Positions 3,255-23,910 of a stretch of DNA of 32,000 nucleotides are shown here, piece after piece. The stretch is taken from assembly GCA_031316235.1 (NCBI GenBank), contig JALDRA010000001.1:3870001-3902000 (forward strand), given 5' to 3'. The stretch is from Candidatus Scalindua sp. (GTDB taxonomy: Bacteria; Planctomycetota; Brocadiia; Brocadiales; Scalinduaceae). The notes beneath the pieces are model-generated. The model was not told the origin of the DNA, ran no database searches, and saw only the letters and a program-made list of their open reading frames with translations. A program made the position numbers and the translations under genes. The stretch's first letter is position 1; every line of letters begins with the position of its first letter.

Positions 3255-4019
3255 ATGGATAGAGCCAGGGTGTCAGCATGTGTTATGACATTCAATAATG
3301 ATGAACAGATTGAAGATTGTCTTAAGAGTGTTACGTGGGCGGATGAAACGGTTGTCGTAGACTCGTTCAGTACTGATAAAACCGTTGATATCTGTCAAAA
3401 GTATACGAATCGGGTCTACCAGAGAAAATGGCCGGGATTCAAAGACCAGTCAAATTATACCATGAGTCTTGCCCGGTATGAATGGATTCTCTTTATGGAT
3501 GCTGATGAGAGGATAACACCGGATCTCTACCGTGAGATACAATCACATCTTAATGACGCTTCTTCTGGTTGGAATGGTTTTTATTTTCCCAGGAAAACAT
3601 TCTATCTTGGAAAATGGATCAATCACGGTGATTGGTACCCTGCATATGACCTCCGTTTGTACCGGAAAGATAAGGGCTGCTGGATAAGAGAACCTCATGC
3701 GAAGATTAAATTAGATGGAAAGGCTAAATATTTAAAGAACGATATGCTGCACTTCTCTTATAAGAACCTTTCTGGTCAACTCAGTACTATTGATAAATAT
3801 ACCGACATGAGTGCCAATGAGATGGAAAAGATGGGTACGGGTTTTGTTACGCTTCAACTTGTTTTCAGACCTCTCTTTCGATTCATCAAGGGGTATTTCC
3901 TTAAACGTGGTTTTATGGATGGATTACCCGGTTTTGTTGCGGCAATGACAACCTCATTCTATGTCTTTATGAAATATGCAAAATTAAGTGAACTGAGAAC
4001 AAAAAAAAGCGAGGGTTAA
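3255..4019 (+). CDS. family 2 glycosyltransferase (LPS-core type, KdtX/WaaE-like)
   Basis: 254 aa with the GT-A N-terminus SACVMTFNNDEQIEDCLKSV..VVVDSFSTDKT and a DxD motif in LFMDADERITPD. GGAG lies 7 nt upstream of the ATG. Confidence 0.85.
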   Translation: MDRARVSACVMTFNNDEQIEDCLKSVTWADETVVVDSFSTDKTVDICQKYTNRVYQRKWPGFKDQSNYTMSLARYEWILFMDADERITPDLYREIQSHLNDASSGWNGFYFPRKTFYLGKWINHGDWYPAYDLRLYRKDKGCWIREPHAKIKLDGKAKYLKNDMLHFSYKNLSGQLSTIDKYTDMSANEMEKMGTGFVTLQLVFRPLFRFIKGYFLKRGFMDGLPGFVAAMTTSFYVFMKYAKLSELRTKKSEG

Positions 4020-7469: not shown

Positions 7470-7609
7470 TATACTCATCTCATACTGGATTTCGGATACA
7501 ATCCGAGATAAAACGGAGCGAGTAAAGTCCTCGGCGTTCTTTTGTCCGGGGATACCTTCACCAAGATTTAGTTTCCGGTAAAACCGAACACCAAATCGGT
7601 TTTAGTATA
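7470..7609 (+). repeat. REP-A copy 4 (long variant with an extra ~28-bp module)
   Basis: Same ends as the other copies, plus the insert AAGTCCTCGGCGTTCTTTTGTCCGGGGA after GAGCGAGTA. Copies 5 and 8 share this insert. Track ORF 7363..7581 is an artefact. Confidence 0.9.
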
Positions 7610-7780
7610 TTCACTTTTCTCAAGCGGCAGGCGGCATCTTTTTAAAGCAGGGATTTGAAAAACAGAGTCGGTATATTGTGGTATCACAGGGAGCAGTAGT
7701 GGAGATCTGGAATTGATAAGGGACGCAATAGACGGCAAAAGTACTCCCCTTTCCATGGTTTTACGATAGCTTCAGAGAGA

Positions 7781-9316
7781 TTAATTTGTACAGCATCTGT
7801 CCATCAAACCTTTTGTCTCTCCTCCTTGCCCGGCTTTTTTCGTATTATAACGGTCTTCCTGACTGTAGATGGCATGCTGTGTTGTATCGCATATATGATA
7901 GATCTGTTCTGATTGCTTGGCAAGGGTATTTTTTATCTCATTCATGACAACCATACATTCATTTGCGAGGATGTCTTCTCTTTCAGAGCAGAGAGCGCAC
8001 CTCTGCAGGAAATCTGAGGTTTTTTCGGCATTTGCGGAGTTCTGAGCAGTAGAAGATGCATTATCTGCCTTGCTGTCTGCAATGTCAAAGTTCCTTGATT
8101 GTATTTGATGAGGAGAAAAAATAGATTTTTCTGAGTTATGTCCTGCATTTTCGTCTCTTTTTCGCAGGAGTCGTTTATTGGATGAAATACTCCGGATTAA
8201 AACTGTGGTGAGGATTAAAAAATAGACACCTCCGATCAGGAGTGAGTAATTTCTGATTAGATAGACACTGGAAAATACTTCGGTCTTGTCAATTTCTGAC
8301 ACGATACCCCAGTCAAGATCTTCAATATTGAGTGGAGTGTATGTACTCATAACAGGAACATTACGATAACCGGGAAGGGTTCCTCCATTCATCCCCCCTG
8401 TGATTGCTGTGCGGACACTTCTGTTCTCTTTCCTCTTTAAAAGTTTCGTACAACTCTCTTCGTTCATCGTATCCCACACACCCTGCTTTATACCAGCTCT
8501 TTGTAGCGGTGAAAAAATATCATCTTTCCTTTCACTAAAAGATTGAGAAATACTCAGAGCAGGATCTTTCCCCACAATATACACATTTCCCGATTTACCC
8601 ATATCATCACTCTTCGATTCATGGTTATTGGTCATTAATAAGTTAATTTCATCAAGAGGTACTTTGTACAGAAGTATCCCCACTTTTTCCGAACCATCAT
8701 AAATAGTAGATGCAGCAAAACTTGCCGCTTTTTTGTATGAAGGCGGGATCAATTCAAAGTCTGTGACTCTTACACAACCGGGGTTTCGGCTCTTGTCTGC
8801 CAGTTGAAATGCCCTGCCAAAATTTGTCTTGGTGTAAGGTTCAACCTGCAAAGAGATTGATAAATCTGAACCTTGCGAATTAGAAAAAACAATTTTTCCG
8901 CTGTATGGTTCAGCAATGTACATTTCAAAATTCTCAAATCGTTTACAATATTCAGTGATAAAGTGATGATACTGCTTCTCTTCATGGGTATTGAGAGTCA
9001 ATCCTGCAGTGAATTTATTTCTCTTCTCCAGCCGGTATTGTTTCTCTGCTAATGGAGAAAGCGCTACTGATCTGGTAACAGGGTAATTGCCAGTAAAATA
9101 CCTTGCAGCTTCAATGATTACTCTATCTTCCGAAATTGTACGTACCTGTTTCCTGATGGAAGTGAAATAGTCCTCAACCTCTCTCTTTTTCGTTTCTCTG
9201 AGAGAAACAAGATGGTTCAAGGTCTGTCTCTTGCACGACGCGTATGTCACTATATGAGCAATTACGGATATTAAAATAAATGGGAACAAACTGCTGTATC
9301 CCATAAAGAGAAACAT
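7781..9316 (-). CDS. membrane sensor with a periplasmic Cache-like domain and an uncharacterised ~140-aa cytoplasmic tail
   Basis: The ORF extends up to 9349 (GTG). I prefer the ATG at 9316, which gives MFLFMGYSS and has GGTGG 7 nt upstream. TM1 is followed by ~330 aa with a Cache-like N-terminal helix pattern (LVSLRETKKREVEDYFTSIRKQV) and then TM2 (LLIGGVYFLILTTVLI). No HAMP, MCP, kinase or GGDEF motif is recognisable after TM2. Confidence 0.75.
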   Translation of the reverse strand: MFLFMGYSSLFPFILISVIAHIVTYASCKRQTLNHLVSLRETKKREVEDYFTSIRKQVRTISEDRVIIEAARYFTGNYPVTRSVALSPLAEKQYRLEKRNKFTAGLTLNTHEEKQYHHFITEYCKRFENFEMYIAEPYSGKIVFSNSQGSDLSISLQVEPYTKTNFGRAFQLADKSRNPGCVRVTDFELIPPSYKKAASFAASTIYDGSEKVGILLYKVPLDEINLLMTNNHESKSDDMGKSGNVYIVGKDPALSISQSFSERKDDIFSPLQRAGIKQGVWDTMNEESCTKLLKRKENRSVRTAITGGMNGGTLPGYRNVPVMSTYTPLNIEDLDWGIVSEIDKTEVFSSVYLIRNYSLLIGGVYFLILTTVLIRSISSNKRLLRKRDENAGHNSEKSIFSPHQIQSRNFDIADSKADNASSTAQNSANAEKTSDFLQRCALCSEREDILANECMVVMNEIKNTLAKQSEQIYHICDTTQHAIYSQEDRYNTKKAGQGGETKGLMDRCCTN

Positions 9317-9891
9317 CTTTTTTCCACCACCCATATGTTTGCTCACCACCTTCTTTTTTCTACGATCACGTGTTTATACAGCTCAGTCTACCAGTTTGCG
9401 ATTTATTATCCTTTTCAAAACAACTCAAATCGCTCCACGTTTGTGTATTTCGAGATCTCATGATCGTTTCATTCAAGCCGGATTCCCCTGCTTTTCCCCG
9501 CATAACGCCTCACTAAGCAGGGCCGAAGTGTTTTGCACATTAAAATCCCTGGTATAAATCAGCAGAAGCCGCAAAATATCTGCCAACAAACCTGCACGAG
9601 TGGAGATATTGAAGAAGATTTATTGTAAGTGTAAATTTAAATGACACATACAGGCAGGAAACCAAAAAATTTTTATTCTTATGGTGAGTGTGAATTTTGG
9701 AATTGTATAATGTTTCAACAGAATCACACGTTTAATGGTACGGGCAGGGATGAGGTGCATTAAGGGTTCAGGAAGAAATAATCTGGTATACCGATATCTC
9801 AGAGTATCTGCAGGAAAGCGCACAAGATTTCCCTTTTGCTCCTGATGCTGCTCCGCAATATGAATCATCTGCATCACTCGGTCATGAAAAT

Positions 9892-10311
9892 CTACCGTAA
9901 GTCTTTACCTAACGTTGTAGTTGTTAACTTTCCGTGCATCACACCTTTTGTCCCGATAAGCCTGTTAGCTATATCCGTTATTTTCTTGGCCTTTCCTTTA
10001 ACAACCAATACTTCCAGGCAGTTATGGGAATCAAGGTGGACGTGCAGTGTAGAAATCATCAGTGTGTGGTATTTATGCTGAATATTTGTAAGCGTATCTG
10101 TCAATTCACGCTTGTGATGGTTATATATTATCGTAATGGTACCGACAGTTTCACTCGTTCCAACCTTCCATTCCTTATCAACCAGATTATTCCTTATAAG
10201 GTCTCTGATAGCCTCAGACCTGTTTTCATAACCTTTTTCTGCAATGTACCGGTCAAATTGTTTGAGTAGTCTGGAGTCAATTGAGACCCAGAACCTGACG
10301 ATTTCTTCCAC
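9892..10311 (-). CDS. nikR: nickel-responsive regulator NikR (ribbon-helix-helix plus ACT-like metal-binding domain)
   Basis: 139 aa. The RHH N-terminus is [36 protein letters not shown]. The high-affinity Ni-site pattern is conserved: IQHKYH...[14 protein letters not shown], matching E. coli H76/H87/H89/C95. Confidence 0.9.
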
Positions 10312-10388
10312 TCTATTTTAGGAAAACAAAAGTATGTGTTAGTGCATCCTGTCCGCAAGAATGGTATTTCATTGAGCGGAGTCAAGTG

Positions 10389-10527
10389 TATATAAAAATC
10401 GATCTGGTTTTAGATTTTTCTCAATACCAAAGCCTGGTTACTGAAACCCCCGGATAAAAAACGCGAGGACTTTACTCGCTCAGTTTTTTCTCGAATTTTA
10501 TCCGAAAACCATTATGAGATGACTATA
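10389..10527 (-). repeat. REP-A copy 5 (long variant, most diverged)
   Basis: The reverse complement aligns with the long variant (TATAGTCATCTCATAATGGTTTTCGGATAAAATTCGAGA...GAGCGAGTAAAGTCCTCGCGTTTTTTATCCGGGGG...). The distal third is degenerate. Confidence 0.75.
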
Positions 10528-10535
10528 TCAAGCAT

Positions 10536-10701
10536 CAGTAGTGTCCGGTTAGGTTTTTGCGTATGCGGCTTTTGTCATACCCGAACGTCTTTATCGGGTA
10601 TCCAGAGACTCGTTTCATCATAGATTCCCGCTAAAAACATGCGGGAATGACAGTTTTTGGGCAATAAATTAAATACGCAAAAACCTAACCGGACACTACT
10701 G
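10536..10701 (+). mobile_element. REP-B copy 4: the best-preserved MITE copy (166 bp, perfect 29-bp TIR)
   Basis: The 5' end CAGTAGTGTCCGGTTAGGTTTTTGCGTAT is the exact reverse complement of the 3' end ATACGCAAAAACCTAACCGGACACTACTG. The core is identical in organisation to copy 1. I see no target duplication; it sits 8 bp from REP-A copy 5. Confidence 0.9.
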
Positions 10702-10754
10702 AGAAAAAGAGTAATTTATGGCAGGAAAACCCGGATGCTGAGGGAATTAACTTT

Positions 10755-10784
10755 TTGACAAGAGCGTGTACTTTTATGTAAAAT
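10755..10784 (+). promoter_or_regulatory. sigma70-like promoter candidate for the 10827 gene cluster
   Basis: TTGACA (10755-10760), an 18-nt spacer, then TAAAAT (10779-10784), about 43 nt upstream of the ATG at 10827. Confidence 0.4.
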
Positions 10785-10826
10785 CAAATCTCAAGTGTCA
10801 CTGGTTCCTTTAGCGATAATGAAATT

Positions 10827-11273
10827 ATGATTAGAAGTTTGAAAAACTTGATTGCCCTTCTGTCGATTCTAGTACTGCTTTTTTCTGGATTATTACTCGT
10901 TGCATCTGATAAGGTAAGTCGGGAGAATATCGAGGTTACATTGGTTGAATCCACACAATTATGCTGTTGCGGCAGCGATATGGCTTCATGTACCGATTGT
11001 TGCTGCAGTAAACCTGATTCAGGGCAGAGCAGCAGAGGAGGTACACCCGTAATGGTTTCTTGTGGCTGTAATCAGGATGATGGTTCTCTCTCCCAGAAAG
11101 TTCACTATTTTATATCGGTAATTTCTTTCAGAACCCTATTCCCCTTTACGGCTTCTTTAACAAGTACGGTTGCGATACTGGAAAATCCCCCATCAACCCA
11201 ACTCTACAAACCACCAAGAGTGGAGCTTCCTGAACCCTCAGTGTCAACAATTTTACGACAAGTAATGAGTTGA
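10827..11273 (+). CDS. Cys-rich membrane-anchored (signal-anchor) protein, unknown family
   Basis: 148 aa. The N-terminal hydrophobic anchor LIALLSILVLLFSGLLLVA is followed by nine Cys within 36 residues (CCCGSDMASCTDCCCSKPD...VSCGC). The C-terminal half is Pro/Ser/Thr-rich. Confidence 0.7.
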   Translation: MIRSLKNLIALLSILVLLFSGLLLVASDKVSRENIEVTLVESTQLCCCGSDMASCTDCCCSKPDSGQSSRGGTPVMVSCGCNQDDGSLSQKVHYFISVISFRTLFPFTASLTSTVAILENPPSTQLYKPPRVELPEPSVSTILRQVMS

Positions 11274-11296
11274 ATGTGAACCTGATCTACTAATTT

Positions 11297-11342
11297 GCAG
11301 CTGGTTATCTCATTAGTATTTGTGATGTCTGAGATCAGCTGC
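11297..11342 (+). other. stem-loop 1 in the spacer between the Cys-rich gene and the barrel gene
   Basis: GCAGCTGgttATCTCA-17 nt-TGAGATCAGCTGC, giving 13 paired positions with a 3-nt bulge. Confidence 0.5.
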
Positions 11343-11364
11343 CGTGCAGGTCATCATTGTTAAT

Positions 11365-11394
11365 AAAGATGGCTTGCACTGATCAGCCATCTTT
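11365..11394 (+). terminator. stem-loop 2: perfect 10-bp hairpin (possible attenuator or terminator)
   Basis: AAAGATGGCT-tgcactgatc-AGCCATCTTT. The only T-run is the TTT that ends the stem, so this would be a weak intrinsic terminator at best. Confidence 0.35.
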
Positions 11395-11399
11395 CACGT

Positions 11400-11421
11400 G
11401 TATGGTACCAGTACTTCATAC
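11400..11421. promoter_or_regulatory. inverted repeat GTATGG-N10-TCATAC (candidate operator)
   Basis: The half-sites equal the E. coli NikR half-sites GTATGA/TCATAC, but the spacing is N10 rather than N16. It lies ~100 bp upstream of the 11523 start. Confidence 0.25.
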
Positions 11422-11522
11422 CGGCTTTTGATACTTCAGGCCAATTTCCCGTTCTGGGAAAGCCCGGTAACATAAATTTCCCGAATTGATATACTTTTAA
11501 AAAGTTTTAAGGAGTTGGTCAC

Positions 11523-12854
11523 ATGTTATGTGTTTTTATAAAAAGTAGAATTTTTCTCTGTTTTTCATTGTGGTTCTGTGCACTTACCGCATTTGCAGGA
11601 ATCTGTAGTGCCGATTCAGACAATTTACTTTCGTATGAGGAAACCCGCCATGACCCAGCTGCTCATATCAGAGCGCGAAACGATAGTGGCAACAGGGAGT
11701 TTCCGGGTTTGCAGAAATTAGCGCAGGCCGGTGACTATCATGAGCACAACCTGCAGGAGAGTAATAAAGAGATTGACGCTGATGCCGCAAAGGAGCTTAT
11801 TCGGCCTGAAAGCCTGCACTATCCCCTCTTTCTCGGCCTCTGCTGCGGGAAATGTGGAGGTAACATGCCTCTGAATATTCCGGGTGGTGGGACACCGGAG
11901 CCGCATGAATTCAGGATTAAGACAAACTTAAACTGGATGAAGATGGTCGGATTAAGAAGGGGTACACACAACAGAAGCCGCCAGGATGCCTTGAAACAGT
12001 ATATGGCAGTGCCCAGAAAAATGGATATGACAATGGGCAACTTTTCAATAGGATACGCTTTTTCAGACCGGTTTTTTCTCGGAGCAATGGGCATGTACAT
12101 GAATAAAGACATGTCAATGATCAACAGGGAAAACAAAAAGTCAAAGATGCAGTCACAGGGTGTCGGAGATACAATGCTCATGACAAAGACTTTAGTTTAC
12201 GCAGATGATCTCCTCTTTCCGACAAACCAGGTATCCGTACTCCTGGGGTTAAGTATACCAACCGGTTCAATAGACCAGGACCAGAGGGGGAGTCTGCTTC
12301 CCTACAGCATGCAGTTGGGATCAGGCACTTTTGATCCTTTTGTAGGAATACTCTATGAGGGTTCCAGGACACCACTTTGGTGGGGATTTAATATAAGTTA
12401 TCTTTCACGGTTATATGAGAACTACAAAAGCTATAATCTTGGGGATAAGTTTCAATTTGATTTATATGGAATGTATCAGATACGTCACGATTTAGTTGCA
12501 GAACTCCAGTTTAACGGGAAATATACAGGTGACATTGAGGGACAGGCAAGAGAGATTCAGCAAGGCGGAACTGGGCACATGATGGGGAATCCCAACCTCC
12601 CTTTTATGAGCAACCTGTTTGATCCTGACAACTATGGGGGTAGCTCACTGGATGTTAGATTCGGAGTTCAGTGGCAGCCGTTTCATAATCATATCTTGAA
12701 CGCACAAATTGCCTTCCCGCTGTTTCAGAATCTCCATGGAACGCAAATGGAGCAGGACTTTACGGCAACACTATCGTATTATGTTGAGTTCCCTTTGGGC
12801 AAAAGCAGGCGTTTTTCAAAAGAGAGATCAGGTCTCGATATATTAGGATTTTGA
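11523..12854 (+). CDS. outer-membrane beta-barrel protein, 'MetA-pathway/transporter'-like family, Met-rich
   Basis: 443 aa with AGGAG upstream of the ATG and a signal peptide. It has a CCGKCGG motif, and 11 Met within ~56 residues (RKMDMTMGN...GAMGMYMNKDMSM...KMQ...TMLMTK). The motif YSMQLGSGTFDP is, from memory, typical of the PF13557-like putative OM channels. The C-terminus ends in Phe (..DILGF), as in OM barrels. Confidence 0.75.
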   Translation: MLCVFIKSRIFLCFSLWFCALTAFAGICSADSDNLLSYEETRHDPAAHIRARNDSGNREFPGLQKLAQAGDYHEHNLQESNKEIDADAAKELIRPESLHYPLFLGLCCGKCGGNMPLNIPGGGTPEPHEFRIKTNLNWMKMVGLRRGTHNRSRQDALKQYMAVPRKMDMTMGNFSIGYAFSDRFFLGAMGMYMNKDMSMINRENKKSKMQSQGVGDTMLMTKTLVYADDLLFPTNQVSVLLGLSIPTGSIDQDQRGSLLPYSMQLGSGTFDPFVGILYEGSRTPLWWGFNISYLSRLYENYKSYNLGDKFQFDLYGMYQIRHDLVAELQFNGKYTGDIEGQAREIQQGGTGHMMGNPNLPFMSNLFDPDNYGGSSLDVRFGVQWQPFHNHILNAQIAFPLFQNLHGTQMEQDFTATLSYYVEFPLGKSRRFSKERSGLDILGF

Positions 12855-12940
12855 TCATTATTCAGTTCAGCCACGGGAGGGTTGTTCTCGTTAGAAGGTA
12901 TAAATTTATCAAAATAAGAAAAAATTGTTGGAGAAAATAT

Positions 12941-13882
12941 ATGCATACGTTGAAACTTCAAATGCCTGTTCTGCTGCTGCTGTTATCAGGTGCAGTACTC
13001 TTGTGCAGCTGTAAAACAATCCAGAAATTACCCGGTTCGAAAACCACCGATGGGTATACCTATATTACCAGGTGCAGTACCTGTCATGCAGTCCCCCATC
13101 CCTCGCGTCTTAAATACCAACACTGGAAGGACAAAATTGTAGTAATGAAAAAAAATGAGATGCCGGTTATTACCGCAAAAGAGAGGAAGTCCGTCCTCTC
13201 TTACATAAAAAACCGATCGGGCAAAGGGAGAAAGACTTACCAATTACGATGCGGAAGCTGCCATAGTGTACCTGCCGTGGAGAGATTACGACCGGACGAG
13301 TGGGAAAATCAGATAGCCGTACTTGATGGGAACATGCCGGTTTTTTCTGAAGAGGAACGATTGGCAGTGGTGAGATATCTGGATACGTACGCAAAGAAAG
13401 GAATATTTAAATCCGAAGTTCAACCTACTGGAACAGCAGGAATGCAATACCCGAAATTAAGAAAGATCCCCCCTCCTTTTTCTTTAACAGATATGGAAGG
13501 GAATCAATTTTCACTGAACGAGGCAGAGGGTAAAGCCGTTATCATACACTTCTGGGCAACATGGTGTGAATCCTGCCGTGAAGAGCTGCCGGCATTAGAA
13601 GAAACGTGGAAAAAATTGCGGGGAATGGATTTTCAAGTTGTAGGTATTGTTTCAGATAAAGATAGTGCTGGTGCTGTCAGGGATTTCGTATCCAAACAGA
13701 ATTTGACATTTCCGATCCTGGTTGATTCCATGGGAAAAACATATCAATCATATCTGGTAAAGGTGTTGCCCACTACCTACATTGTCGGAAAGGATGGTAA
13801 GATCGCATCAAGAGCGACTGGTGCCATTAATTGGAGAGATGAAGAAATTGCACAGTATATTCATCATATCGTTCATGAATAG
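12941..13882 (+). CDS. dihaem c-type cytochrome fused to a TlpA/ResA-like periplasmic thioredoxin
   Basis: The track ORF starts at 12851. I prefer the ATG at 12941 (GGAGA 6 nt upstream), which gives the signal peptide MHTLKLQMPVLLLLLSGAVLLCSC. There are two tandem ~55-aa modules, each with CxxCH (CSTCH, CGSCH) and a conserved N.MPV. They are followed by a thioredoxin fold with FWATWCESCREELP. Confidence 0.8.
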   Translation: MHTLKLQMPVLLLLLSGAVLLCSCKTIQKLPGSKTTDGYTYITRCSTCHAVPHPSRLKYQHWKDKIVVMKKNEMPVITAKERKSVLSYIKNRSGKGRKTYQLRCGSCHSVPAVERLRPDEWENQIAVLDGNMPVFSEEERLAVVRYLDTYAKKGIFKSEVQPTGTAGMQYPKLRKIPPPFSLTDMEGNQFSLNEAEGKAVIIHFWATWCESCREELPALEETWKKLRGMDFQVVGIVSDKDSAGAVRDFVSKQNLTFPILVDSMGKTYQSYLVKVLPTTYIVGKDGKIASRATGAINWRDEEIAQYIHHIVHE

Positions 13883-13940
13883 CCTGATCAAGCCCTGTAC
13901 AGCACGAAATTCTGATTCTCTCACTCGGCTCAAACACAAA

Positions 13941-14024
13941 TATACTCATCTCATACTGGATTTCGGATAAAATCCGAGATAAAATTGAGCGAGTATGTCT
14001 TCACCAGGATTTGGTTTTAGTATA
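13941..14024 (+). repeat. REP-A copy 6 (short variant lacking the CCGGTAAAACCG hairpin module)
   Basis: Same 5' 70 nt and same terminal TTTTAGTATA as the other copies, with ~28 nt deleted between them. Confidence 0.85.
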
Positions 14025-14253
14025 ACAGGTTATATTTCAGACTGACCTCCTGGTGAAAAGTCAAATAAAAAGGCTTTACTGTAAAGATAATTCTCTCTCT
14101 ATCTCATGCAGTAAGGCTGTCTTATTTTGAACTCCGACGTATACTCATCAAGACCCATACTTTGCGCCTCCCTGATCACTCAGGGATTGCCTGTTATTTC
14201 ACTTCTCTGATCTATCGTTCCCTCATGAAAGCAGAAACAGCCTCTCAGGTAAT

Positions 14254-14742
14254 TCATGGTTCATGTATTGTGTCTGCCGTTTCGTTATATACGAACGCAG
14301 GTTCCTCCGTGAGCAGCTCCCGTATTTTACTTTTCAATGCGGTTAAATCGGTGGATCTGGCAATGACTGCATCTACCGCCCATGACAAAAAATCCTCCCT
14401 CTGATTACCGCAAGTAGTATGAATAATAATTGGACTACTCCTGTTTTTACCTATAATCCTGCCTATTGCCTCAAGGCCACCCGTCTGCGGATCCATTATG
14501 ATTATGTCTGGATAGAGCCATTGAACCTTATCTAACGCCTCCCTGCCATCAGCTGCTGTTATGACCTTGTAGCCTTCTGAGCCCAACTCCTGCTCATAAA
14601 GTACCTGCTGTTGTTCACATCCGTCTACACAGAGAAGCGTAGTCGTCTTTATGGACTCCTCTCTTCTGATAAGGTCTGCATGGTCCGGATGGCCAACCAA
14701 CCACGGATTGATTATCTGAATTCTCATTTTTCCTCTTATCAT
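14254..14742 (-). CDS. stand-alone receiver (REC) domain protein with a non-canonical active site
   Basis: The track ORF extends to 14880. I prefer the ATG at 14742 (AGGAAG upstream). REC fold: LLCVDGCEQ has DG in place of the usual acidic pair. PDIIIMDP retains the phospho-acceptor Asp, and IIIHTT is present. DAVIARS has Arg where the conserved Lys is expected. There is no output domain. Confidence 0.7.
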   Translation of the reverse strand: MIRGKMRIQIINPWLVGHPDHADLIRREESIKTTTLLCVDGCEQQQVLYEQELGSEGYKVITAADGREALDKVQWLYPDIIIMDPQTGGLEAIGRIIGKNRSSPIIIHTTCGNQREDFLSWAVDAVIARSTDLTALKSKIRELLTEEPAFVYNETADTIHEP

Positions 14743-15205
14743 GGGAACTTCCTGACAAATTGAAAGGTTATTGCCTGAAACAGCTAAATTACATGAGCTC
14801 CCCGAATAGTACTGACAAGAAACAGGGTGCTCACCGTCTGGATTATGCAGCCTGCCAGAAAGCCACCGGCTACCGCACATACGTAATTATGAAGACTGGT
14901 GTATATGCATGACAAAACATATGCCAAAAAATGAGATCTGGTTCAGTTTGTAACCACTCTGAGGAAAAGAACGTATTACAACCTTGAATCGAAGGGGGGA
15001 GCTGTTCGCGTTCGACGGGATATCAGCTGATGGGCATTATGGAATACAGAGGCCGTATGTAATTTTTTAACTCCTGCCTGATTTATAGGTTAAGGAGGAG
15101 AAGGTATTCTGCAGCCAGTTTGATTAAGCGGGAAGAGAAGAGTCCAATGCAGGTTTTCGTGATGGGGTAAGACCCGTCCTGAAAACAGGAGGTGACAGAT
15201 AAAGT

Positions 15206-15373
15206 ATGTTACTATTTTTCTGGTTTTTCACCATAGCTGTTTCACAAATTGAAAGAAAGCATAGTATGTTACACTTGTGTAAGTGGCTACACTTGTGTGT
15301 ATGCTTACACAGGTGGTCAACATATTATCTCTTTATTATTCCTGAATCTTTGACCAGATGGAACTCTCCCTGA
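15206..15373 (+). CDS. speculative 55-aa sORF spanning the 18-bp repeat array
   Basis: Below the track cut-off. AGGAGG lies 13 nt upstream of the ATG. My translation is MLLFFWFFTIAVSQIERKHSMLHLCKWLHLCVCLHRWSTYYLFIIPESLTRWNSP. The DNA repeat produces the hexapeptide repeats LHLCKW / LHLCVC / LHRWST. Coding status is unproven. Confidence 0.2.
   Translation: MLLFFWFFTIAVSQIERKHSMLHLCKWLHLCVCLHRWSTYYLFIIPESLTRWNSP
15269..15316. promoter_or_regulatory. tandem 18-bp repeat array (about 2.6 units), with an ACAC-TT-GTGT palindrome in the first two units
   Basis: The units are TTACACTTGTGTAAGTGG / CTACACTTGTGTGTATGC / TTACACAGGTGG. TACAC recurs at exactly 18-bp spacing (15270, 15288, 15306). The first unit contains the perfect inverted repeat TTACAC-TT-GTGTAA. 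The array lies in the divergent spacer between the receiver gene and the 15637 gene. Confidence 0.5.
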
Positions 15374-15636: not shown

Positions 15637-16320
15637 ATGAGTAAAATGTTAAATATCTACAGCGTCCTATTTGTTTGTGCAGCTTTGTGGAGCACTCTGG
15701 TTTTTGCAGCTGAAGAAGAGTTTAATACAGCAGTTGCTACCGGTGAAAACCAGATCATTGTATCTCCCATGAACATATTACTTGATCTTGAAGAGACTGC
15801 ATCTGCAAGCGCTATCGTTCTCGATCGCGATGGGTTACCTGTAGAAGGTCTTAAATTAATGGTTGTTTCCCAGGACAAGACAAAGCTCAAAATTATTGGT
15901 GACGATTTTACCACCAGCGTATCAGGCAGTGTTGAATTCGCATTACAGGGAATACAGAACGGAGATTTTGTCATAACGGTGTCAGACGGTGCGGTTTCCG
16001 TTCACATAAATGCGGCGGTAAAGAGCCTTATACGTTACGTTTTACCATACTTTTATGGTGATATGCAGATAAGCCTTATCAATCCTACAAATTATACTAA
16101 CTATGTTAAGATACAATTACACGAAAATAATGACAGGACTTCACCCCCTGTTGTAGTCAGGCTGAACGAGAAAGAGATGATATCACTTCAATTATCTGAA
16201 GAACTGGATACTAAATTAGCTGAGGGATGGGTGGAACTTTTTTCTACTGAAATTCTCGTTGGCGGGACATGGACAAACAGGGGGTATGTCTCTTTTGATC
16301 AGGTCAGGACGTATCAATAA
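15637..16320 (+). CDS. secreted protein with a bacterial Ig-like (Big-type) domain
   Basis: 227 aa with the signal peptide MLNIYSVLFVCAALWSTLVFA. An Ig-like pattern follows: SASAIVLDRDGLPVEGLKLMVVSQD...SGSVEFALQG..GDFVITVSDG. I recognise nothing in the C-terminal ~100 aa. Confidence 0.7.
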   Translation: MSKMLNIYSVLFVCAALWSTLVFAAEEEFNTAVATGENQIIVSPMNILLDLEETASASAIVLDRDGLPVEGLKLMVVSQDKTKLKIIGDDFTTSVSGSVEFALQGIQNGDFVITVSDGAVSVHINAAVKSLIRYVLPYFYGDMQISLINPTNYTNYVKIQLHENNDRTSPPVVVRLNEKEMISLQLSEELDTKLAEGWVELFSTEILVGGTWTNRGYVSFDQVRTYQ

Positions 16321-16568
16321 GGAATCTGTGTCTCTTTTAAAAGTTCCCCCATCTGATTTTCATGAAGCTTGATATCGGATGCTTCAAGCTTCTGGAAAAA
16401 ATGTGTTTCCAGCTTAACGTCATAAGCCTTAAGCACACAGAGCACCATGTATCGCATATCCAGAATAGTCCCATCAATATCAAAAAGAAGCATCAGTTTA
16501 TCTTGAGAATACAACCCACGTATTCTTTCATAATGTGAGGCAAGCTCTGCCATCCAATTATTTTTCAC
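16314..16568 (-). pseudogene. HAD-superfamily hydrolase N-terminal fragment (84 aa), probably truncated
   Basis: It contains HAD motif I, LLFDIDGTILD, but stops after 84 aa and lacks motifs II-IV. Its 3' end overlaps the stop of the convergent 15637..16320 gene, and its start overlaps the phoU stop by 11 nt. Confidence 0.45.
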
Positions 16569-17259
16569 TGCCTTTGACTTCTCTTTTTTTCGGAGGGCGT
16601 CTTTTTCCCACGTTATGCTTTATACACTCTCCTTTCAGGAGGAATATTACGCACTCAGCAATGTTGGTGGCGTGATCGGCAATTCGTTCCAGGTGCCTTC
16701 CCACTAATATCAGCTCTACCGCTCTTGTAATCACCTTCGTATCCTCTATCATATAAGTCAGGAGTTCCCTGAAAATCTGCTCATTAATTTTATCCACCTC
16801 ATCATCTCTTTTACAAACGTCTATGGCCAGAGCCTCGTCCTTATTAACCAGCGAGTTGATAGAATCCTTTACCATCAGCTGAGACAGTTCCGCCATACGG
16901 GGAATATCTATTAATGGTTTAAGAATGGGTAGTTTAATGATCTCCTGTGTCCGTTCCGCGATATTGACCGCCTGATCACCTATACGCTCTAAATCTTTGT
17001 TGATCTCCATTGCGGAGGTGATAAACCGCAGGTCTGTCGCAACCGGTTGGTAGAGTGCTAAAAGCCTGATGCACAATTCGTCTATCTGAATTTCCAGCAG
17101 ATCTATCGAGTCATCTGATCTGATAGTCTCTTCTGCTAAATCTCCATTGCGTTCTGATAAGGACTTCACCGCATTCTGAATAGCTCTTTCTGTCAGCGTA
17201 CTCATATTCAGGAGAAGGTTATTTAATTCATTTAATTCTTCGTCAAAATGTCTTTCCAT
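16558..17259 (-). CDS. phoU: phosphate signalling/transport accessory protein PhoU
   Basis: 233 aa with the duplicated PhoU repeat signatures D.SIDLLEIQIDE...LERIGDQAVNIAE and DDEVDKINEQI...LERIADHATNIAE. Confidence 0.92.
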   Translation of the reverse strand: MERHFDEELNELNNLLLNMSTLTERAIQNAVKSLSERNGDLAEETIRSDDSIDLLEIQIDELCIRLLALYQPVATDLRFITSAMEINKDLERIGDQAVNIAERTQEIIKLPILKPLIDIPRMAELSQLMVKDSINSLVNKDEALAIDVCKRDDEVDKINEQIFRELLTYMIEDTKVITRAVELILVGRHLERIADHATNIAECVIFLLKGECIKHNVGKRRPPKKREVKGSEK

Positions 17260-17295
17260 AATTCAATTCCTAAAAATAGTGGTTTTCTCCTTCCT

Positions 17296-17429
17296 CTATC
17301 CAAATCTTCCCGTAAGGTAATCCTGAGTAGAACTTTTAGCCGGATTAGTAAATATGGTACTGGTTTTGTCGTACTCAATAAATTCCCACTGAAATCTTCT
17401 GCCTTTATCTTGTTTTTTCTCTGATCCAT
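17296..17429 (-). pseudogene. pstB: pstB remnant: about the first 14 codons joined out of frame to about the last 30 codons
   Basis: From the ATG at 17429 the reading is MDQRKNKIKAEDFS, comparable to the E. coli PstB N-terminus ..SKIQVRNLNFYYG. In another frame, ending at the TAG at 17296-17298, it reads WEFIEYDKTSTIFTNPAKSSTQDYLTGRFG, comparable to the E. coli PstB C-terminus [30 protein letters not shown]. Walker A, the signature motif and Walker B are all absent. Only 209 nt separate pstA from phoU. Confidence 0.8.
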
Positions 17430-17468
17430 CGGAAGAACTTTCCTTGTAAATAAATATCAAAAAACTAT

Positions 17469-19067
17469 CTATACTGAGGAGACCGTATATTTCTTTCTCA
17501 GTTTATTGCGTACGAGTATTGCTCCAAGGTTTAAGGTAAGCACCGTTAAAACCAGGACAAGGGTTGTGGTATAGACCATTGGGAGAGCAGCTTCTATGTT
17601 GGGAGACTGAAAACCCACGTCGTACACATGAAATCCCAGGTGCATAAATTTCCGTTCAAAATGTATATAAGGAAAATTGCTGTCCAGGGGAAGAGATGGG
17701 GCAAGTTTAACCACACCCGTAATCATCAGAGGTGCTACTTCCCCTGCTGCCCTTGCCATTGCAAGTATTGTACCCGTAAGAATTCCTGGAGTAGCCTGTG
17801 GAAGTACTACTCTCCAGATTGTTTCAAATTTTGTTGCTCCCAGTGCATACGAGGCTTCTTTTAATGATTTTGGAACAGCAGATAACCCTTCTTCGGTGGT
17901 CACAACCACGACTGGTACCGTCAGAAGTGCAAGGGTGAGAGATGCCCAGAGTATTCCGCCGGTTCCAAAAGTCGGGGTTGGTAATGCCTCATGAAAAAAC
18001 ATCTTATCAATACCGCCACCAACAAAGTATATGAAAAAGCCAAGGCCAAAGACCCCGAAGACAATTGAAGGGACACCGGCAAGATTATTAACGGATATCC
18101 TCACAAGTCTGGCAAAAATATTATCACTGGTATATTCTTTAAGGTATACGGCAGTCAAAACGCCAAGCGGAACAGCTGCGATAGTCATGATGAGAACCAT
18201 TAAAACCGTACCGAAGATCGCCGGGAAAATACCTCCTTCCGTGTTTGCTTCTCTCGGTTCATCCAGTAGAAACTCACAAACCTTCTGAAGGTAACAATAG
18301 AATTTTTCGAAAATACCCATTTCATTGGGTGCGTAGATGCGGATAATCTGGAAAATTGGTAATACCCGTTCACTTCCATCCACCAGTGCTATTACCACCT
18401 CATGCTCACGTGCACTCGTATAGAGATCGTCAAGTATTTCTACCTTTTTCTGGTAGAATTTTTCCAGTTCTTCTATACTGGCCTGGATTGATTGTATCTT
18501 TTCCTGAACAGTTCCAGACTGCTGTCTCATCCCCAGTTCTTTCAACTGAAGACGGAACTTTTCTGTTTTGTGGTTTATCTTACCAATCTCTTTTTTTTCA
18601 ATATGTCGAATCATTTTATGAAGCTTTTCGTTTTCCTTTAACAATGGCCTCATGTCAGCCAGCTCAAAAGGTTTAATCCTGCCATCCACTTTCAGACCTT
18701 TAAAAAAACCATACATGTTGCCCCACTCGTCCCGTTCAATGGTCAATGCAGACTGAGGATATTCCTGTGAAACAATGTTCTGATTTTCAATCCAGCGAAA
18801 GTCTAAGGCATACACCTCTCTATTACCGACCTTTAACTTTGTTCTATAGAAATCTTTTTTATCTGGTACAGACTCCTTTTTTGCAATTTCTCCCATAACG
18901 GCAGTACCATCCTTGAGGGTATATTGAACCAGCCTGTGCGGCCAGAACATTCCCAATCCCTTTACCAGGATGAGGGCAATTAATCCCGTTATCATCAGTA
19001 TACTTATCGCAAGTGTACCTGCCGTAAGCCAGATATATGGATCACCGTTCTTAAAGAGCTTATTCAT
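17469..19067 (-). CDS. pstA: phosphate ABC transporter permease PstA (long form)
   Basis: 532 aa. An N-terminal TM is followed by a ~250-aa extracytoplasmic insert and a C-terminal permease core with the EAA-type loop MARAAGEVAPLMITG. Confidence 0.9.
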   Translation of the reverse strand: MNKLFKNGDPYIWLTAGTLAISILMITGLIALILVKGLGMFWPHRLVQYTLKDGTAVMGEIAKKESVPDKKDFYRTKLKVGNREVYALDFRWIENQNIVSQEYPQSALTIERDEWGNMYGFFKGLKVDGRIKPFELADMRPLLKENEKLHKMIRHIEKKEIGKINHKTEKFRLQLKELGMRQQSGTVQEKIQSIQASIEELEKFYQKKVEILDDLYTSAREHEVVIALVDGSERVLPIFQIIRIYAPNEMGIFEKFYCYLQKVCEFLLDEPREANTEGGIFPAIFGTVLMVLIMTIAAVPLGVLTAVYLKEYTSDNIFARLVRISVNNLAGVPSIVFGVFGLGFFIYFVGGGIDKMFFHEALPTPTFGTGGILWASLTLALLTVPVVVVTTEEGLSAVPKSLKEASYALGATKFETIWRVVLPQATPGILTGTILAMARAAGEVAPLMITGVVKLAPSLPLDSNFPYIHFERKFMHLGFHVYDVGFQSPNIEAALPMVYTTTLVLVLTVLTLNLGAILVRNKLRKKYTVSSV

Positions 19068-19107
19068 GTTGAAAATTTCATAAAAAGTTTGTCATGCAGT
19101 GTTATTA

Positions 19108-21318: not shown

Positions 21319-21324
21319 TAATTC

Positions 21325-22305: not shown

Positions 22306-22442
22306 TATTTCTCCTTATTATTTTAATTGAAAATAGTACTCTTTTCTTTGCAGCTTATCATATCCACAAACACAGTGATGGACAGCAAACATGTGCTCTT
22401 TATTGACTTCATACCGTCACCCCAACTGCAATCATGGCGATC

Positions 22443-23828: not shown

Positions 23829-23910
23829 CTTTTTTCTCCTTTTTCATGTTTCTGCCTTCCGTTGACGCTTTCATTTGAAATAGTATCTAAATTAATGGTA
23901 TCTTTTCAGA

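Follow-up and report, generated by a model that had tools for sequence, protein, structure and literature searches.

Outer-membrane channels of the COG4313 (PF13557) family, such as Pput2725 of Pseudomonas putida F1 (PDB entry 4rl8), are thought to carry hydrophobic molecules, as the title of that entry also states. In the published Pput2725 structure, an N-terminal segment reportedly occludes the lumen. The outer-membrane component of the pcuABCDE copper system of Bradyrhizobium is the TonB-dependent receptor PcuB. TlpA has the established role of reducing the cysteines that act as Cu ligands in ScoI and CoxB (PMC6669012). For the regulator NikR, the published box consensus is GTGTTAC-N13/14-GTAACAC (PMC545781).

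Here, we analyzed a window of 32,000 nt from the anammox bacterium Candidatus Scalindua sp. (GCA_031316235.1, contig JALDRA010000001.1, positions 3,870,001–3,902,000, forward strand). A preliminary description had noted a nikR gene divergent from three co-directional envelope genes and had read the arrangement as a module for nickel or, alternatively, copper. We found that the three genes represent a real, conserved and widespread envelope module, for which no description was found in the searchable literature. Of the metal reading, the copper alternative is favored by the genomic context, whereas the headline link of the three genes to NikR did not hold. Residue chemistry and guilt by association suggest that the operon most likely handles copper, not nickel. 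That two independent units lie side by side, a nikR relic of a NikR/Ni-Co-permease pair and a copper-handling envelope operon, is a reading to which we give about even chances.

Architecture of the envelope operon

All four previously described ORFs (NikR, the 9-Cys protein, the CCGKCGG barrel and the cytochrome-thioredoxin fusion) proved to be real and correctly placed. The first gene of the operon (10827–11273, plus strand) encodes a signal-anchored protein of 148 aa with a hydrophobic N-terminus and, as described earlier, exactly 9 Cys within 36 residues (aa 46–81, nt 10962–11069), followed by a C-terminal YKPP motif (nt 11208–11219). The residues shared without exception by 12 Scalindua homologues are C46/47/48/55/58/60 and Y-K-P-P. 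The protein has no match to any Pfam or NCBIfam model, and homologues are detectable within Scalindua only; other phyla have positional analogues with a signal peptide, Cys/His residues and a C-terminal PP, for which homology is not demonstrable. The Cys-rich protein evolves fast and is an accessory partner to the barrel.

The second gene (11523–12854, plus strand) encodes an outer-membrane barrel of 443 aa with a COG4313/FapF-like fold. The earlier assignment as a Met-rich barrel is supported by 22 Met (6.2% of the mature core), by the CCGKCGG motif at aa 107–113 and by an AlphaFold2 model with 12 strands over residues 129–424. An invariant N-terminal motif, GLCCGKCGGNMPLNIPGGG, spans nt 11835–11891. 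Across the barrel homologues, GLCCxKCGGNMP and about ten lumen-facing Met are invariant, the lumen orientation being derived from strand parity, not from coordinates. The N-terminal segment with the Cys motif has a pLDDT below 50, so that we place it in the pore by assumption, following homologous folds. Against PF13557 (Phenol_MetA_deg) the barrel scores 17.6 bits, under the Pfam cutoff of 22, and many homologues have a precomputed match to this family. The best Foldseek match is FapF (5o65/5o67, E 2e-13), and the COG4313 channel 4rl8 reaches a TMt of 0.76. The barrel has neither a Pfam CopB match nor a CxxCH haem motif. In paralogous barrels, the Cys motif is replaced by HAPIGVMGDHxH, while the MxMxM strands are kept.

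The third gene (12941–13882, plus strand) encodes a dihaem cytochrome c–thioredoxin fusion with a lipoprotein-like leader. While the mechanical ORF starts at 12851, the true start is probably ATG 12941, giving 313 aa, with GGAG nine bases upstream; sister fusion genes encode 313–319 aa. The fused state and the TlpA-like CxxC site were recovered as described, with the CxxCH motifs CSTCH (nt 13073–13087) and CGSCH (nt 13250–13264), the TlpA/ResA-like thioredoxin site WCESC (nt 13562–13576) and matches to Pfam DHC (30.3 bits, cutoff 22.2) and AhpC-TSA (1.4e-26). The thioredoxin stays under the NCBIfam equivalog cutoffs for both TlpA (66.8 vs 230) and ResA (107 vs 170). Most lineages encode a separate mono-haem lipoprotein cytochrome, not a dihaem fusion; in other phyla cytochrome and thioredoxin are encoded separately, except for a fusion that arose independently in Myxococcales (L021). 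The cytochrome gene always lies between barrel and thioredoxin, fused to the latter in the window.

Distribution of the module

The order barrel, cytochrome c, thioredoxin recurs in at least six phyla. A one-genome-per-species collection contains 393 matching stretches, with carriers in Scalindua, Zeta- and Gammaproteobacteria, Thermodesulfobacteriota, Nitrospirota, Spirochaetia and Myxococcales. Nearly all of the 88 loci examined show this order, an arrangement far from chance. Outside Scalindua, the cytochrome is present in 66/68 and the thioredoxin in 64/68 loci, and in several of the loci missing one of them the contig extends little or not at all beyond the barrel. All thioredoxins seen contain (W/F)CxxC, and marine members of Scalindua (the clade of S. 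japonica, S. rubra and S. arabica) have no thioredoxin at all. The conserved core consists of barrel, cytochrome and thioredoxin. The trio as first defined held only in part: the Cys-rich protein is detectable in Scalindua only, and both the fusion and the dihaem state are specific to certain lineages. The neighborhood of the three core genes recurs across genomes, and NikR takes no part in it in any of the non-Scalindua module loci (0/68).

A probable leftover nikR next to the operon

The nikR gene (9892–10311, minus strand) encodes a Ni-responsive RHH regulator of 139 aa. Its intactness, noted earlier, is reflected in 212 bits against the NCBIfam NikR equivalog NF003381 (cutoff 105), the Pfam domains NikR_C (1.8e-33) and RHH_1, and the Ni-site pattern HVHLDSHNC at residue 90. 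At the DNA level it is 86–87% identical to nikR of two sister genomes (L006 and L007), where nikR (minus strand) is followed by the gene for a 237-aa permease (plus strand) and then by those for the Cys-rich protein, the barrel and the fusion. This His-rich DsbD_2-family permease with the loop HKHWHAHEDMSMSIHKHSHSTDHLHIHKG belongs to a family named elsewhere NicO, UreH-domain, nickel/cobalt exporter or RcnA. In two further loci (L089 and L090), nikR adjoins the permease with no barrel nearby. A GTG(T/C)TAC-N13-AT(G/A)(C/A)TAC site upstream of the permease is common to these four loci (4/4), and L090 has GTGTTAC-N13-ATAACAC upstream of nikR. The NicO/UreH-type permease with its NikR-box-like site, lying between nikR and the operon in the sister genomes, explains the presence of NikR.

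In the window, tblastn with the permease as query detected no permease, and neither of the spacers proposed as carriers of a NikR box (10312–10826 and 11274–11522) contains a NikR-box-like site. Window positions 9893–10333 align with L007 2871–3312 and positions 10448–10527 with L007 4834–4913, leaving a deletion scar at 10334–10447, where L007 has approximately 1.5 kb with the NikR-box-like site and the 237-aa permease gene. A Scalindua repeat element (10389–10528) contains a bidirectional terminator-like hairpin (10463–10479); with more copies at 7470–7611 and 13938–13995, inverted copies flank the operon. It is followed by a 168-bp MITE-like element (10535–10702) whose terminal inverted repeats, 30 bp in length, are perfect, so that a hairpin and two inserted repeat elements separate nikR from the operon. 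A sigma-70-like promoter (TTGACA-18-TAAAAT, 11/12 matches) lies at 10755–10784 on the plus strand, 43 bp upstream of the Cys-rich gene, within a stretch homologous to L006 and L007; going by the consensus match only, it is likely the operon's own promoter.

Because its usual permease partner is missing, the nikR of the window is an orphan, and with permease gene and operator deleted, NikR is therefore probably not the regulator of the neighboring operon. The suggested link between NikR and the operon was thus not borne out, the permease being NikR's conserved partner and the module occurring mostly without NikR. Most module-bearing Scalindua loci lack NikR, among them L008, L010 and the 14 marine Scalindua loci fetched. 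As judged from these gene neighborhoods, nikR beside the envelope operon is probably a leftover neighbor; a non-canonical site that escapes recognition might still let NikR act on the operon.

Copper context and possible functions

Several module loci contain copper genes; in Zetaproteobacteria, genes for PCuAC, Sco1, Csp1 and CopCD are interleaved with the operon or adjoin it. Seven Zetaproteobacteria loci have a PCuAC gene within the operon, whereas in the gammaproteobacterial locus L085 this gene is on the regBA strand. L075 has Sco1/SenC (2e-38) between cytochrome and PCuAC, and L057 has a Csp1 copper-storage homologue (E 1e-20 to 5fjd) between cytochrome and thioredoxin. CopC and CopD are directly upstream and co-directional in L028, CopD likewise in L036, and one HAPIGVMGDHxH-type paralogous barrel adjoins a PCuAC-family gene. 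Besides that, about 20 non-Scalindua loci have RegB/RegA-type redox two-component genes upstream in divergent orientation; those checked are gammaproteobacterial. Zetaproteobacteria account for almost all of the embedded copper genes, which are hence not phylogenetically independent, and no recognized copper gene was found in the window or the other Scalindua loci. It also speaks against the copper reading that no known copper system explains the role of the cytochrome.

On present sequence evidence, the module is best read as a putative outer-membrane Cu(I) channel with redox maintenance, feeding periplasmic copper chaperones. The 12-stranded barrel would offer a soft-ligand Cu(I) path, its lumen wall lined by the invariant methionines, and the N-terminal segment with the invariant CCxKC thiols may sit in or under the pore, as in COG4313/FapF barrels. 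The TlpA-like periplasmic thioredoxin would keep the thiols of the barrel, the Cys-rich partner and Sco-type chaperones reduced (cf. TlpA with ScoI and CoxB); its absence from marine Scalindua means that this thiol-maintenance step cannot be obligatory everywhere. The membrane-tethered c-type cytochrome might supply or remove electrons or set the Cu(II)/Cu(I) state. Copper could then pass to periplasmic chaperones or stores (PCuAC, Sco, Csp1, CopC/D) and on to cuproenzyme assembly. Metal specificity, transport direction and electron path are here what we infer from the observed gene anatomy, conservation and context.

One alternative, that NikR controls the three genes as a new Ni (or Co) capture and uptake system replacing NikABCDE, NiCoT or CbiMNQO, appears highly improbable. 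The divergent adjacency of nikR and operon, seen in the window and also in two sister genomes, would fit it, as would possible Ni binding at the Cys-rich sites. Family searches of all ORFs of at least 110 aa also confirmed that the transporters usually linked to NikR are absent nearby, with no Ni/Co transporter in the 32-kb window; the remaining ORFs of this size match Pst/PhoU, OprO/P porins, a Mod-type ABC system, carbonic anhydrase, SulP and housekeeping families, except for two without a family match. However, the sister-genome permease and its operator account for NikR, both travel together without the barrel in L089 and L090, and the module occurs without NikR in L008, L010, 14 marine Scalindua and 68 non-Scalindua loci. 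Both spacers lack a NikR-box-like site, and the hairpin and the two repeats intervene. A Met-rich lumen such as that of the barrel is also not a known feature of Ni systems. Somewhat less improbable, yet still unlikely, is detoxification of Cu (or Ag/Hg), with the barrel as a PcoB/CopB-like exit or sequestration site and the thiol/haem partners buffering Cu(I). The Met/Cys chemistry fits Cu(I), Ag(I) and Hg(II), one operon includes the Csp1 storage protein, and the carriers live in metal-rich vents and sediments. Nevertheless, CopA, CusCBA, CueO/PcoA and MerR/CueR genes are not enriched among the neighbors, the flanking regulators are RegBA-type respiratory ones rather than metal-stress sensors, Pfam CopB does not match, and the partners found (PCuAC, Sco1, CopCD) are supply or assembly factors (PMC6669012).

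Two further explanations move away from copper supply, and we consider both of them, to the same extent, rather unlikely. The barrel may export the small Cys/His-rich protein to the surface as a metal-binding or redox-active protein in a FapF-like manner, with the conserved C-terminal PP(K/R) tail as recognition signal and thioredoxin and cytochrome keeping it unfolded and reduced for threading the narrow 12-stranded pore. Indeed, the top structural match is the FapF polypeptide transporter, a small signal-peptide protein is encoded directly upstream and co-directionally in Scalindua, Zetaproteobacteria, Nitrospirota and some Thermodesulfobacteriota as well as next to His-motif barrel paralogues, and it evolves very fast, like surface-exposed proteins. 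Against export, no convincing small upstream ORF (signal peptide plus C-terminal PP tail) was found in the 34 gammaproteobacterial loci (0/34), which retain the three core genes and every invariant residue. There are no amyloid-type or other Fap components, the FapF match reflects the general 12-strand plugged-barrel fold, with COG4313 scoring equally, and export does not account for the barrel's invariant Cys motif or its Met lining. The other explanation is a redox or sulfur function, either an outer-membrane thiol site activating a hydrophobic or chalcophile substrate, for instance elemental sulfur or polysulfide taken up as a persulfide, which thioredoxin and cytochrome would resolve, or a Cyc2-like outer-membrane electron conduit connected to a periplasmic cytochrome. 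By far most carriers are lithotrophs from marine settings that are sulfidic or ferrous (sulfur-oxidizing Gammaproteobacteria, Zetaproteobacteria, Thermodesulfobacteriota, Thermodesulfovibrionales, Ca. Sulfobium and Scalindua), and the hydrophobic cargo proposed for COG4313 channels and the cytochrome as obligatory partner would suit this function. Rhodanese genes occur near 5 loci, but all five are in related genomes, and the one checked (L085) lies on the opposite, convergent strand. The barrel is without CxxCH and thus not a Cyc2-type fused cytochrome-porin, sox, dsr, sqr and multihaem genes are not enriched among the neighbors, and four copper-protein families are embedded in or adjoin the operon.

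Comparison with known systems

The window nikR is orthologous to the nikR of L006, L007, L089 and L090, which is paired with a NicO/UreH/RcnA-type permease, with a GTGTTAC-type half-site upstream; in contrast to such pairs, permease and operator are deleted in the window, leaving nikR beside an unrelated operon. With COG4313 channels, the barrel shares the 12-stranded fold, weak profile similarity and an N-terminal segment ahead of strand 1. The generic family, however, lacks the invariant CCxKCGG and the Met lining, its proposed substrates are hydrophobic organics and not metals, and the window-type barrel is, as a rule, encoded with cytochrome c and thioredoxin. FapF is likewise a plugged 12-stranded barrel with a small secreted protein encoded just upstream, but it shares only 12% sequence identity with the window barrel and has different partners; neither a fap operon nor a coiled-coil trimerization domain was found for the window barrel. 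Similarly, Cyc2 of iron oxidizers, which also occurs in Zetaproteobacteria, combines a small barrel in the outer membrane with an N-terminal segment that is redox-active and with a periplasmic cytochrome partner, whereas the module barrel carries CCxKCGG instead of CxxCH and its cytochrome is a separate lipoprotein.

The TlpA-ScoI-PcuC (PCuAC) pathway with pcuABCDE (PMC6669012) resembles the module in its TlpA-like thioredoxin with a CxPC-type site, co-operonic with PCuAC and Sco1 in Zetaproteobacteria, and may follow the same logic of keeping copper-ligand thiols reduced. It differs in that the module thioredoxin has a c-type cytochrome fused to it or encoded next to it, a small passive barrel takes the place of the TonB-dependent receptor in the outer membrane, and the Scalindua locus is without a copper chaperone. 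PcoB/CopB and OprC/NosA are candidate functional analogues, with outer-membrane copper passage via Met-, His- or Cys-rich sites. The window barrel, having no TonB box, belongs to another fold class than the 22-strand TonB-dependent receptors OprC/NosA, and the Cys motif and the redox partners set the module apart from all of these proteins.

Gene content of the window

The four genes from which a link between NikR and a three-gene envelope cluster had been proposed are present as the preliminary description read them. The nikR gene (9892-10311, minus strand) scores 212.3 bits against NCBIfam NF003381 (cutoff 105), 115 bits against PF08753 (NikR_C) and 23.7 bits against PF01402 (RHH). The Ni-site pattern H...HxH...C can be read from its sequence as HVHLDSHNC at aa 90, with HH/H residues before it. 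With both domains, an equivalog score above the curated cutoff and this site, the regulator was rightly called intact. Divergent from it, on the plus strand, lie a Cys-rich ORF of 148 aa (10827-11273), a barrel of 443 aa (11523-12854) and a cytochrome-thioredoxin fusion. The likely start of the fusion is ATG 12941, which is preceded by GGAG nine bases upstream and yields a protein of 313 aa with a lipoprotein-like leader; the genes of the sister genomes encode 313-319 aa, and this codon is probably the true start. The fusion matches DHC (PF09626; 30.3 bits, cutoff 22.2), AhpC-TSA (93.3 bits) and Redoxin (79.5 bits). Its two CxxCH motifs (CSTCH, CGSCH) and its WCESC active site agree with the earlier reading as a dihaem cytochrome c joined to a CxxC thioredoxin.

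Of the other ORFs that reach 110 aa, 1122-1766 and 29470-29946 had no family match; the rest encode Pst/PhoU, two OprO/P porins, a Mod-type ABC system, a carbonic anhydrase, SulP and housekeeping proteins. As previously stated, no Ni/Co transporter is found among the window ORFs of this size. The gene conserved upstream of the module throughout the freshwater-type Scalindua loci (L006-L011), whether they have nikR or not, encodes in the window a 522-aa protein (7781-9349, minus strand); its only domain match is a weak one to dCache_1, and an output domain cannot be recognised in it. The PstSCAB and PhoU genes (16558-25837) lie within a few kb of the module, and phosphate-uptake genes directly follow it, co-directionally, in three unrelated Thermodesulfobacteriota-type loci (L004, 8134-12572, and downstream in L025 and L026). 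Within the Pst region of the window, a 736-aa ABC permease (BPD_transp_1; 19108-21318, minus strand) contains an inserted WD40-like beta-propeller segment at aa ~215-400, which is an unusual architecture for a PstC/PstA-type protein.

Genomic history of the nikR adjacency

The two closest sister Scalindua genomes are L006, whose contig is that of L009, and L007, which is near-identical to L011. Both have dCache and nikR on the minus strand and then, on the plus strand, genes for a 237-aa membrane protein of the DsbD_2 family, for the Cys-rich protein, for the barrel and for the cytochrome-thioredoxin fusion. In the DsbD_2-family protein, a GPDHY motif and the loop HKHWHAHEDMSMSIHKHSHSTDHLHIHKG can be read, and its family is elsewhere labelled NicO, UreH-domain, nickel/cobalt exporter or RcnA. 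A role as a CcdA-like electron supplier for the thioredoxin was considered and rejected; a Ni/Co permease is preferred because of the His-rich loop, the names from other sources and the pairing with NikR away from the module. Such pairing is seen in two Scalindua-type contigs (L089, L090), where nikR and the permease gene are adjacent and co-directional in unrelated contexts without the barrel. The site GTG(T/C)TAC-N13-AT(G/A)(C/A)TAC was found just upstream of the permease gene in 4/4 loci. Upstream of nikR in L090 we found GTGTTAC-N13-ATAACAC, with 1 mismatch to the delta-proteobacterial NikR box published as GTGTTAC-[N13/14]-GTAACAC (PMC545781).

Alignment of the window with L007 revealed that the homology ends ~20 bp past the nikR start (window 10333 = L007 3312) and picks up again at a repeat element (window 10448-10527 = L007 4834-4913). 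Approximately 1.5 kb with the operator and the permease gene are thus missing from the window, and tblastn detected no permease remnant in it. Neither GTATGA-N14-18-TCATAC nor GTGTTAC-N10-18-GTAACAC had a match across the window. The clade-specific site derived from the four loci, allowing <=3 mismatches, was found in neither spacer (10312-10826, 11274-11522), and elsewhere it matched about as often as chance predicts. Both spacers also lack the site that the sister genomes share in front of their permease gene, and the NikR box is present in them in no version. Further downstream, ATGTTAC-N13-GCTACAC (15266-15292, plus strand) has 3 mismatches to the NikR-box consensus and lies between a response-regulator gene (14254-14880) and a Big_1-like gene (15637-16320). 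This match is probably due to chance, since three such matches occur in the window and 0.88 are expected.

Two further freshwater-type loci (L008, L010) have dCache, the Cys-rich gene, the barrel and the fusion, and neither nikR nor the permease. nikR is also absent from the marine Scalindua loci and from 68/68 non-Scalindua loci. It adjoins the module only in the window and in the two sister genomes, with the permease gene in between in both sisters, so that the co-localisation proposed earlier is not conserved. In the simplest history, one subclade has a NikR-permease unit next to an operon of greater age, and the permease was later lost from the window, where nikR remains as a relic. Regulation of the operon by NikR is very improbable. 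The adjacency in the window is probably a deletion artefact and advises caution against inferring regulons from a single genome.

The 515-bp spacer between nikR and the operon contains a copy of a Scalindua repeat of ~140 nt, present in the window at 7470-7611, 10389-10528 (inverted) and 13938-13995, and also in L006 (8577-8715), L007 (4807-4913) and L008 (437-519 and 7350-7490). The repeat has a bidirectional terminator-like hairpin, GCGAGGACTTTACTCGC, between A and T runs (10463-10479 in the spacer copy). Inverted copies flank the operon in the window, and in sister genomes copies occupy different intergenic positions of the same locus. Also inserted in this spacer is a MITE-like element of 168 bp (10535-10702), which has perfect terminal inverted repeats of 30 bp, TCAGTAGTGTCCGGTTAGGTTTTTGCGTAT, contains two hairpins of 8 bp and is missing at the equivalent place in L006 and L007. 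A strong sigma-70-like promoter (10755-10784, plus strand; 11/12 matches) precedes the Cys-rich gene by 43 bp, in a segment conserved with the sister genomes. At the other end, a borderline c-di-GMP-I riboswitch match (14104-14201, minus strand; 35.1 bits, gathering score 35.0) faces the operon 3' end with no obvious downstream gene on its own strand. It may be a false positive or strain-specific, because four sister loci have no counterpart.

Conservation of barrel, cytochrome and thioredoxin

Scanning a one-genome-per-species collection for barrel relatives returned 393 matching stretches. These belong to Scalindua, Zetaproteobacteria (including the cultured Mariprofundus sp. EBB-1), Thiotrichaceae, Thiohalobacter, Thiogranum, Chromatiales, Ectothiorhodospiraceae, Thermodesulfobacteriota, Nitrospirota, Spirochaetia and Myxococcales. 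A cytochrome gene directly follows the barrel gene in 66/68 non-Scalindua loci and a thioredoxin gene comes next in 64/68; in several of the loci without one or the other, the contig ends at or shortly after the barrel. All thioredoxins seen carry (W/F)CxxC. The expected recurrence of the trio is therefore confirmed for barrel, cytochrome and thioredoxin, which are conserved over phyla, but not for the Cys-rich protein, which has only positional analogues elsewhere.

Outside Scalindua, the partner cytochrome is a mono-haem protein of ~90 aa with a lipobox and the motif CxxCHxxPHPxR; among 55 clustered cytochrome ORFs, 42 have one CxxCH and 13 have two. The dihaem cytochrome of Scalindua is a tandem duplication of the mono-haem form. 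Fusion with the thioredoxin is found in the clade of the window and in one Myxococcales genome (L021), where it apparently arose independently, and two such events argue for a direct functional coupling of cytochrome and thioredoxin. The thioredoxin gene is absent from the loci of the marine Scalindua clade. In the window, this domain remains under the NCBIfam cutoffs for ResA (107.2/170), TlpA (66.8/230) and DsbE (48.6/123), and it is therefore a relative, not a demonstrable orthologue, of TlpA/ResA. TlpA, its closest characterised relative, acts together with PcuC/PCuAC and maintains in the reduced state the cysteines by which ScoI and CoxB bind copper (PMC6669012).

A barrel with invariant Met and Cys residues

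The window barrel shares 100% identity with a protein that is annotated as 'transporter [Candidatus Scalindua sp.]', which makes an anammox planctomycete the source of the window. Its description as a Met-rich barrel with CCGKCGG holds, with 22 Met in 443 aa and 12 long strands in the AlphaFold2 model (residues 129-424, pLDDT mostly 76-91). The Cys motif is part of the N-terminal peptide GLCCGKCGGNMPLNIPGGG, in a segment that is invariant across phyla (G-L-C-C-x-K-C-G-G-N-M-P-x-N-I-x-G-x-G) and lies within residues 26-123, which are modelled at pLDDT <50. Likewise invariant across phyla are M141, M167, M169, M171, M189, M191, M197, M199, M209, M218 and M263. According to strand parity, the ten of these Mets in predicted strands (M141 to M218) are all on the non-hydrophobic face of strands 1-6, which we infer to be the lumen. 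The Mets would point inwards, and the Cys-bearing segment is a putative plug. A Cyc2-like fused cytochrome-porin was rejected as an identity of the barrel, because it has CCGKCGG and no CxxCH.

In an exhaustive profile search, the barrels fell into a tight orthologue group that scores >300 bits and a second tier at 140-215 bits; at 50% identity the former has ~16 representatives and the latter, to which protein ids P0258-P0391 belong, ~300. The nine second-tier proteins that were read have no Cys motif and carry H-A-P-I-G-V-M-G-D-H-x-H-x-x-G-E-W-M at the equivalent position. They keep the MxMxM strands, and their sequences thus suggest that the wider clade has soft-metal ligands, the Cys version being a specialised offshoot. 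Two His-motif paralogues seen in context (L092, 6001-7080; L094, 4650-5642) each have a small ORF of ~135 aa directly upstream. In one of these two contexts, that of P0272, a PF04314 gene (PCuAC family) is part of the co-directional cluster as well as the small ORF. The His-motif barrels look like an uncharacterised His/Met outer-membrane copper-barrel family of their own. No reductase partner was evident in the two contexts examined, and these two suggest the idea that a His plug does without redox partners and that a thiol plug needs a reductase. Co-occurrence of the thiol plug with reductase partners would then be an evolutionary rule.

Pfam and NCBIfam profiles gave no match to the Cys-rich ORF, for which the hydrophobic N-terminus and the count of 9 Cys in 36 residues reported for a signal-anchored protein are borne out, and a search with its sequence returned 2 matches only. 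Six Cys and a C-terminal Y-K-P-P are invariant among the Scalindua proteins. At the same position, Zetaproteobacteria have a small ORF with invariant ECGCGC and a C-terminal PPP(K/R), and small ORFs are also present in Nitrospirota, in some Thermodesulfobacteriota and next to His-motif paralogues. All of these positional ORFs combine a signal peptide with a middle part rich in Cys/His/Met and a PP motif at the C-terminus. By hhalign, the Scalindua and the zetaproteobacterial proteins showed no detectable homology (probability 0.7%), and they are therefore treated as positional analogues only; gammaproteobacterial loci offered no convincing counterpart. Altogether, we treat the Cys-rich protein as a fast-evolving accessory partner outside the invariant core.

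Copper genes around the module

An unbiased Pfam census of 248 neighbouring ORFs, followed by targeted checks, pointed to copper. A PCuAC gene is part of the operon in seven Zetaproteobacteria loci, in the gap between cytochrome and thioredoxin genes (L051, L063, L075) or after the thioredoxin gene (L049, L057, L059, L078). The eighth PCuAC locus is gammaproteobacterial (L085), with the gene at 1640-2092 on the regBA strand; an assignment to 3459-4001 of this locus was wrong. A Sco1/SenC gene (2e-38) lies between the cytochrome and PCuAC genes of L075, and a Csp1 copper-storage homologue (E about 1e-20 to 5fjd, 8r4l) between the cytochrome and thioredoxin genes of L057. CopC and CopD are encoded directly upstream and co-directionally in L028, as is CopD in L036. 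The embedded copper genes come almost all from one class, the Zetaproteobacteria, and the window and all Scalindua loci lack a recognised copper gene.

In ~20 non-Scalindua loci, those checked being gammaproteobacterial, genes of a RegB/RegA-type redox two-component system lie upstream in divergent orientation. DsbC/G genes are found upstream in ten loci, those checked being from Zetaproteobacteria. Six zetaproteobacterial loci (L032, L030, L049, L059, L078, L088) carry a second thioredoxin-fold gene and a DsbC/G-type isomerase gene upstream of the barrel on the minus strand, divergent from the operon, so that the module may be part of a larger thiol-redox neighbourhood in this class.

Possible function and rival explanations

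Based on these data, the barrel would offer Cu(I) a way across the outer membrane that is lined by Met and plugged by thiols. In the oxidising periplasm, the TlpA-like thioredoxin could maintain the CCxKC motif in reduced form, and likewise the Cys-rich partner and Sco-type chaperones, if any. The tethered cytochrome, whose gene lies between those of barrel and thioredoxin and is fused to the latter in the window, might feed electrons to the thioredoxin or set the Cu(II)/Cu(I) state, and copper would then be handed on to periplasmic chaperones and stores. We offer only tentatively the fuller version, a TonB-independent, redox-gated copper channel in which the Met lumen and the CCxKC plug select Cu(I), a haem-to-thioredoxin relay reduces or gates the plug, and the His clade (HAPIGVMGDHxH) is an oxygen-tolerant version without reductase.

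Several other explanations compete with such a channel. The preliminary description allowed for a metal module handling Ni or Cu; its metal reading is retained for copper, favoured by PCuAC, Sco1, Csp1 and CopC/CopD in related loci, but the nickel hypothesis, for which an intact nikR next door would speak, is opposed by the lack of a NikR site and of a conserved nikR. A function in sulfur metabolism or electron transfer would be in line with rhodanese neighbours in 5 loci and with the cytochrome itself. The sulfur idea is weakened because the rhodanese gene of L085, the only one checked, lies convergently on the other strand, and neither sulfur-oxidation nor multihaem nor Ni genes were enriched in the census of neighbours.

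Export of the small protein through a FapF-like barrel would fit the top Foldseek match of the barrel model, which is to the FapF polypeptide transporter (E 2e-13); another of the best matches is to the COG4313 channel Pput2725 (4rl8, TMt 0.76, E 2e-10). Both of these are barrels plugged by their N-terminal segment. No fap genes were found in the Pfam census of module neighbours. Copper detoxification is a further rival. That the module is a genuinely new, TonB-independent and redox-maintained outer-membrane copper channel is a possibility that we regard as somewhat doubtful.

Comparison with known systems

The passage of copper across the bacterial outer membrane is poorly understood. To our knowledge, dedicated routes are limited to the TonB-dependent receptors OprC/NosA and PcuB, with non-specific porins in addition, and we know of no copper system that uses such a cytochrome. 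Here, a small passive barrel family has invariant soft-metal ligands in hundreds of species, among them marine iron oxidisers, sulfur oxidisers, sulfate reducers and anammox bacteria. A copper channel, if true, would be a new mechanism and would explain the copper supply of cbb3/aa3 oxidases and other cuproenzymes in sulfidic, copper-poor water. Judged by sequence, the superfamilies of all module components are already known, and what appears new is their combination and the motif set of the barrel. Neither was found in the searchable literature, in line with the preliminary description, whose author knew of no account of such a module.

The PcoB/CopB profile (PF05275) did not match the window barrel at E up to 0.1, nor did PDB sequences searched with the barrel profile. 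FapF resembles it at the fold level only, with 12% identity. With the COG4313/PF13557 channel Pput2725, the window barrel has the 12-stranded fold in common; its own PF13557 score of 17.6 bits is under the gathering score of 22, and many of its homologues have a precomputed PF13557 match.
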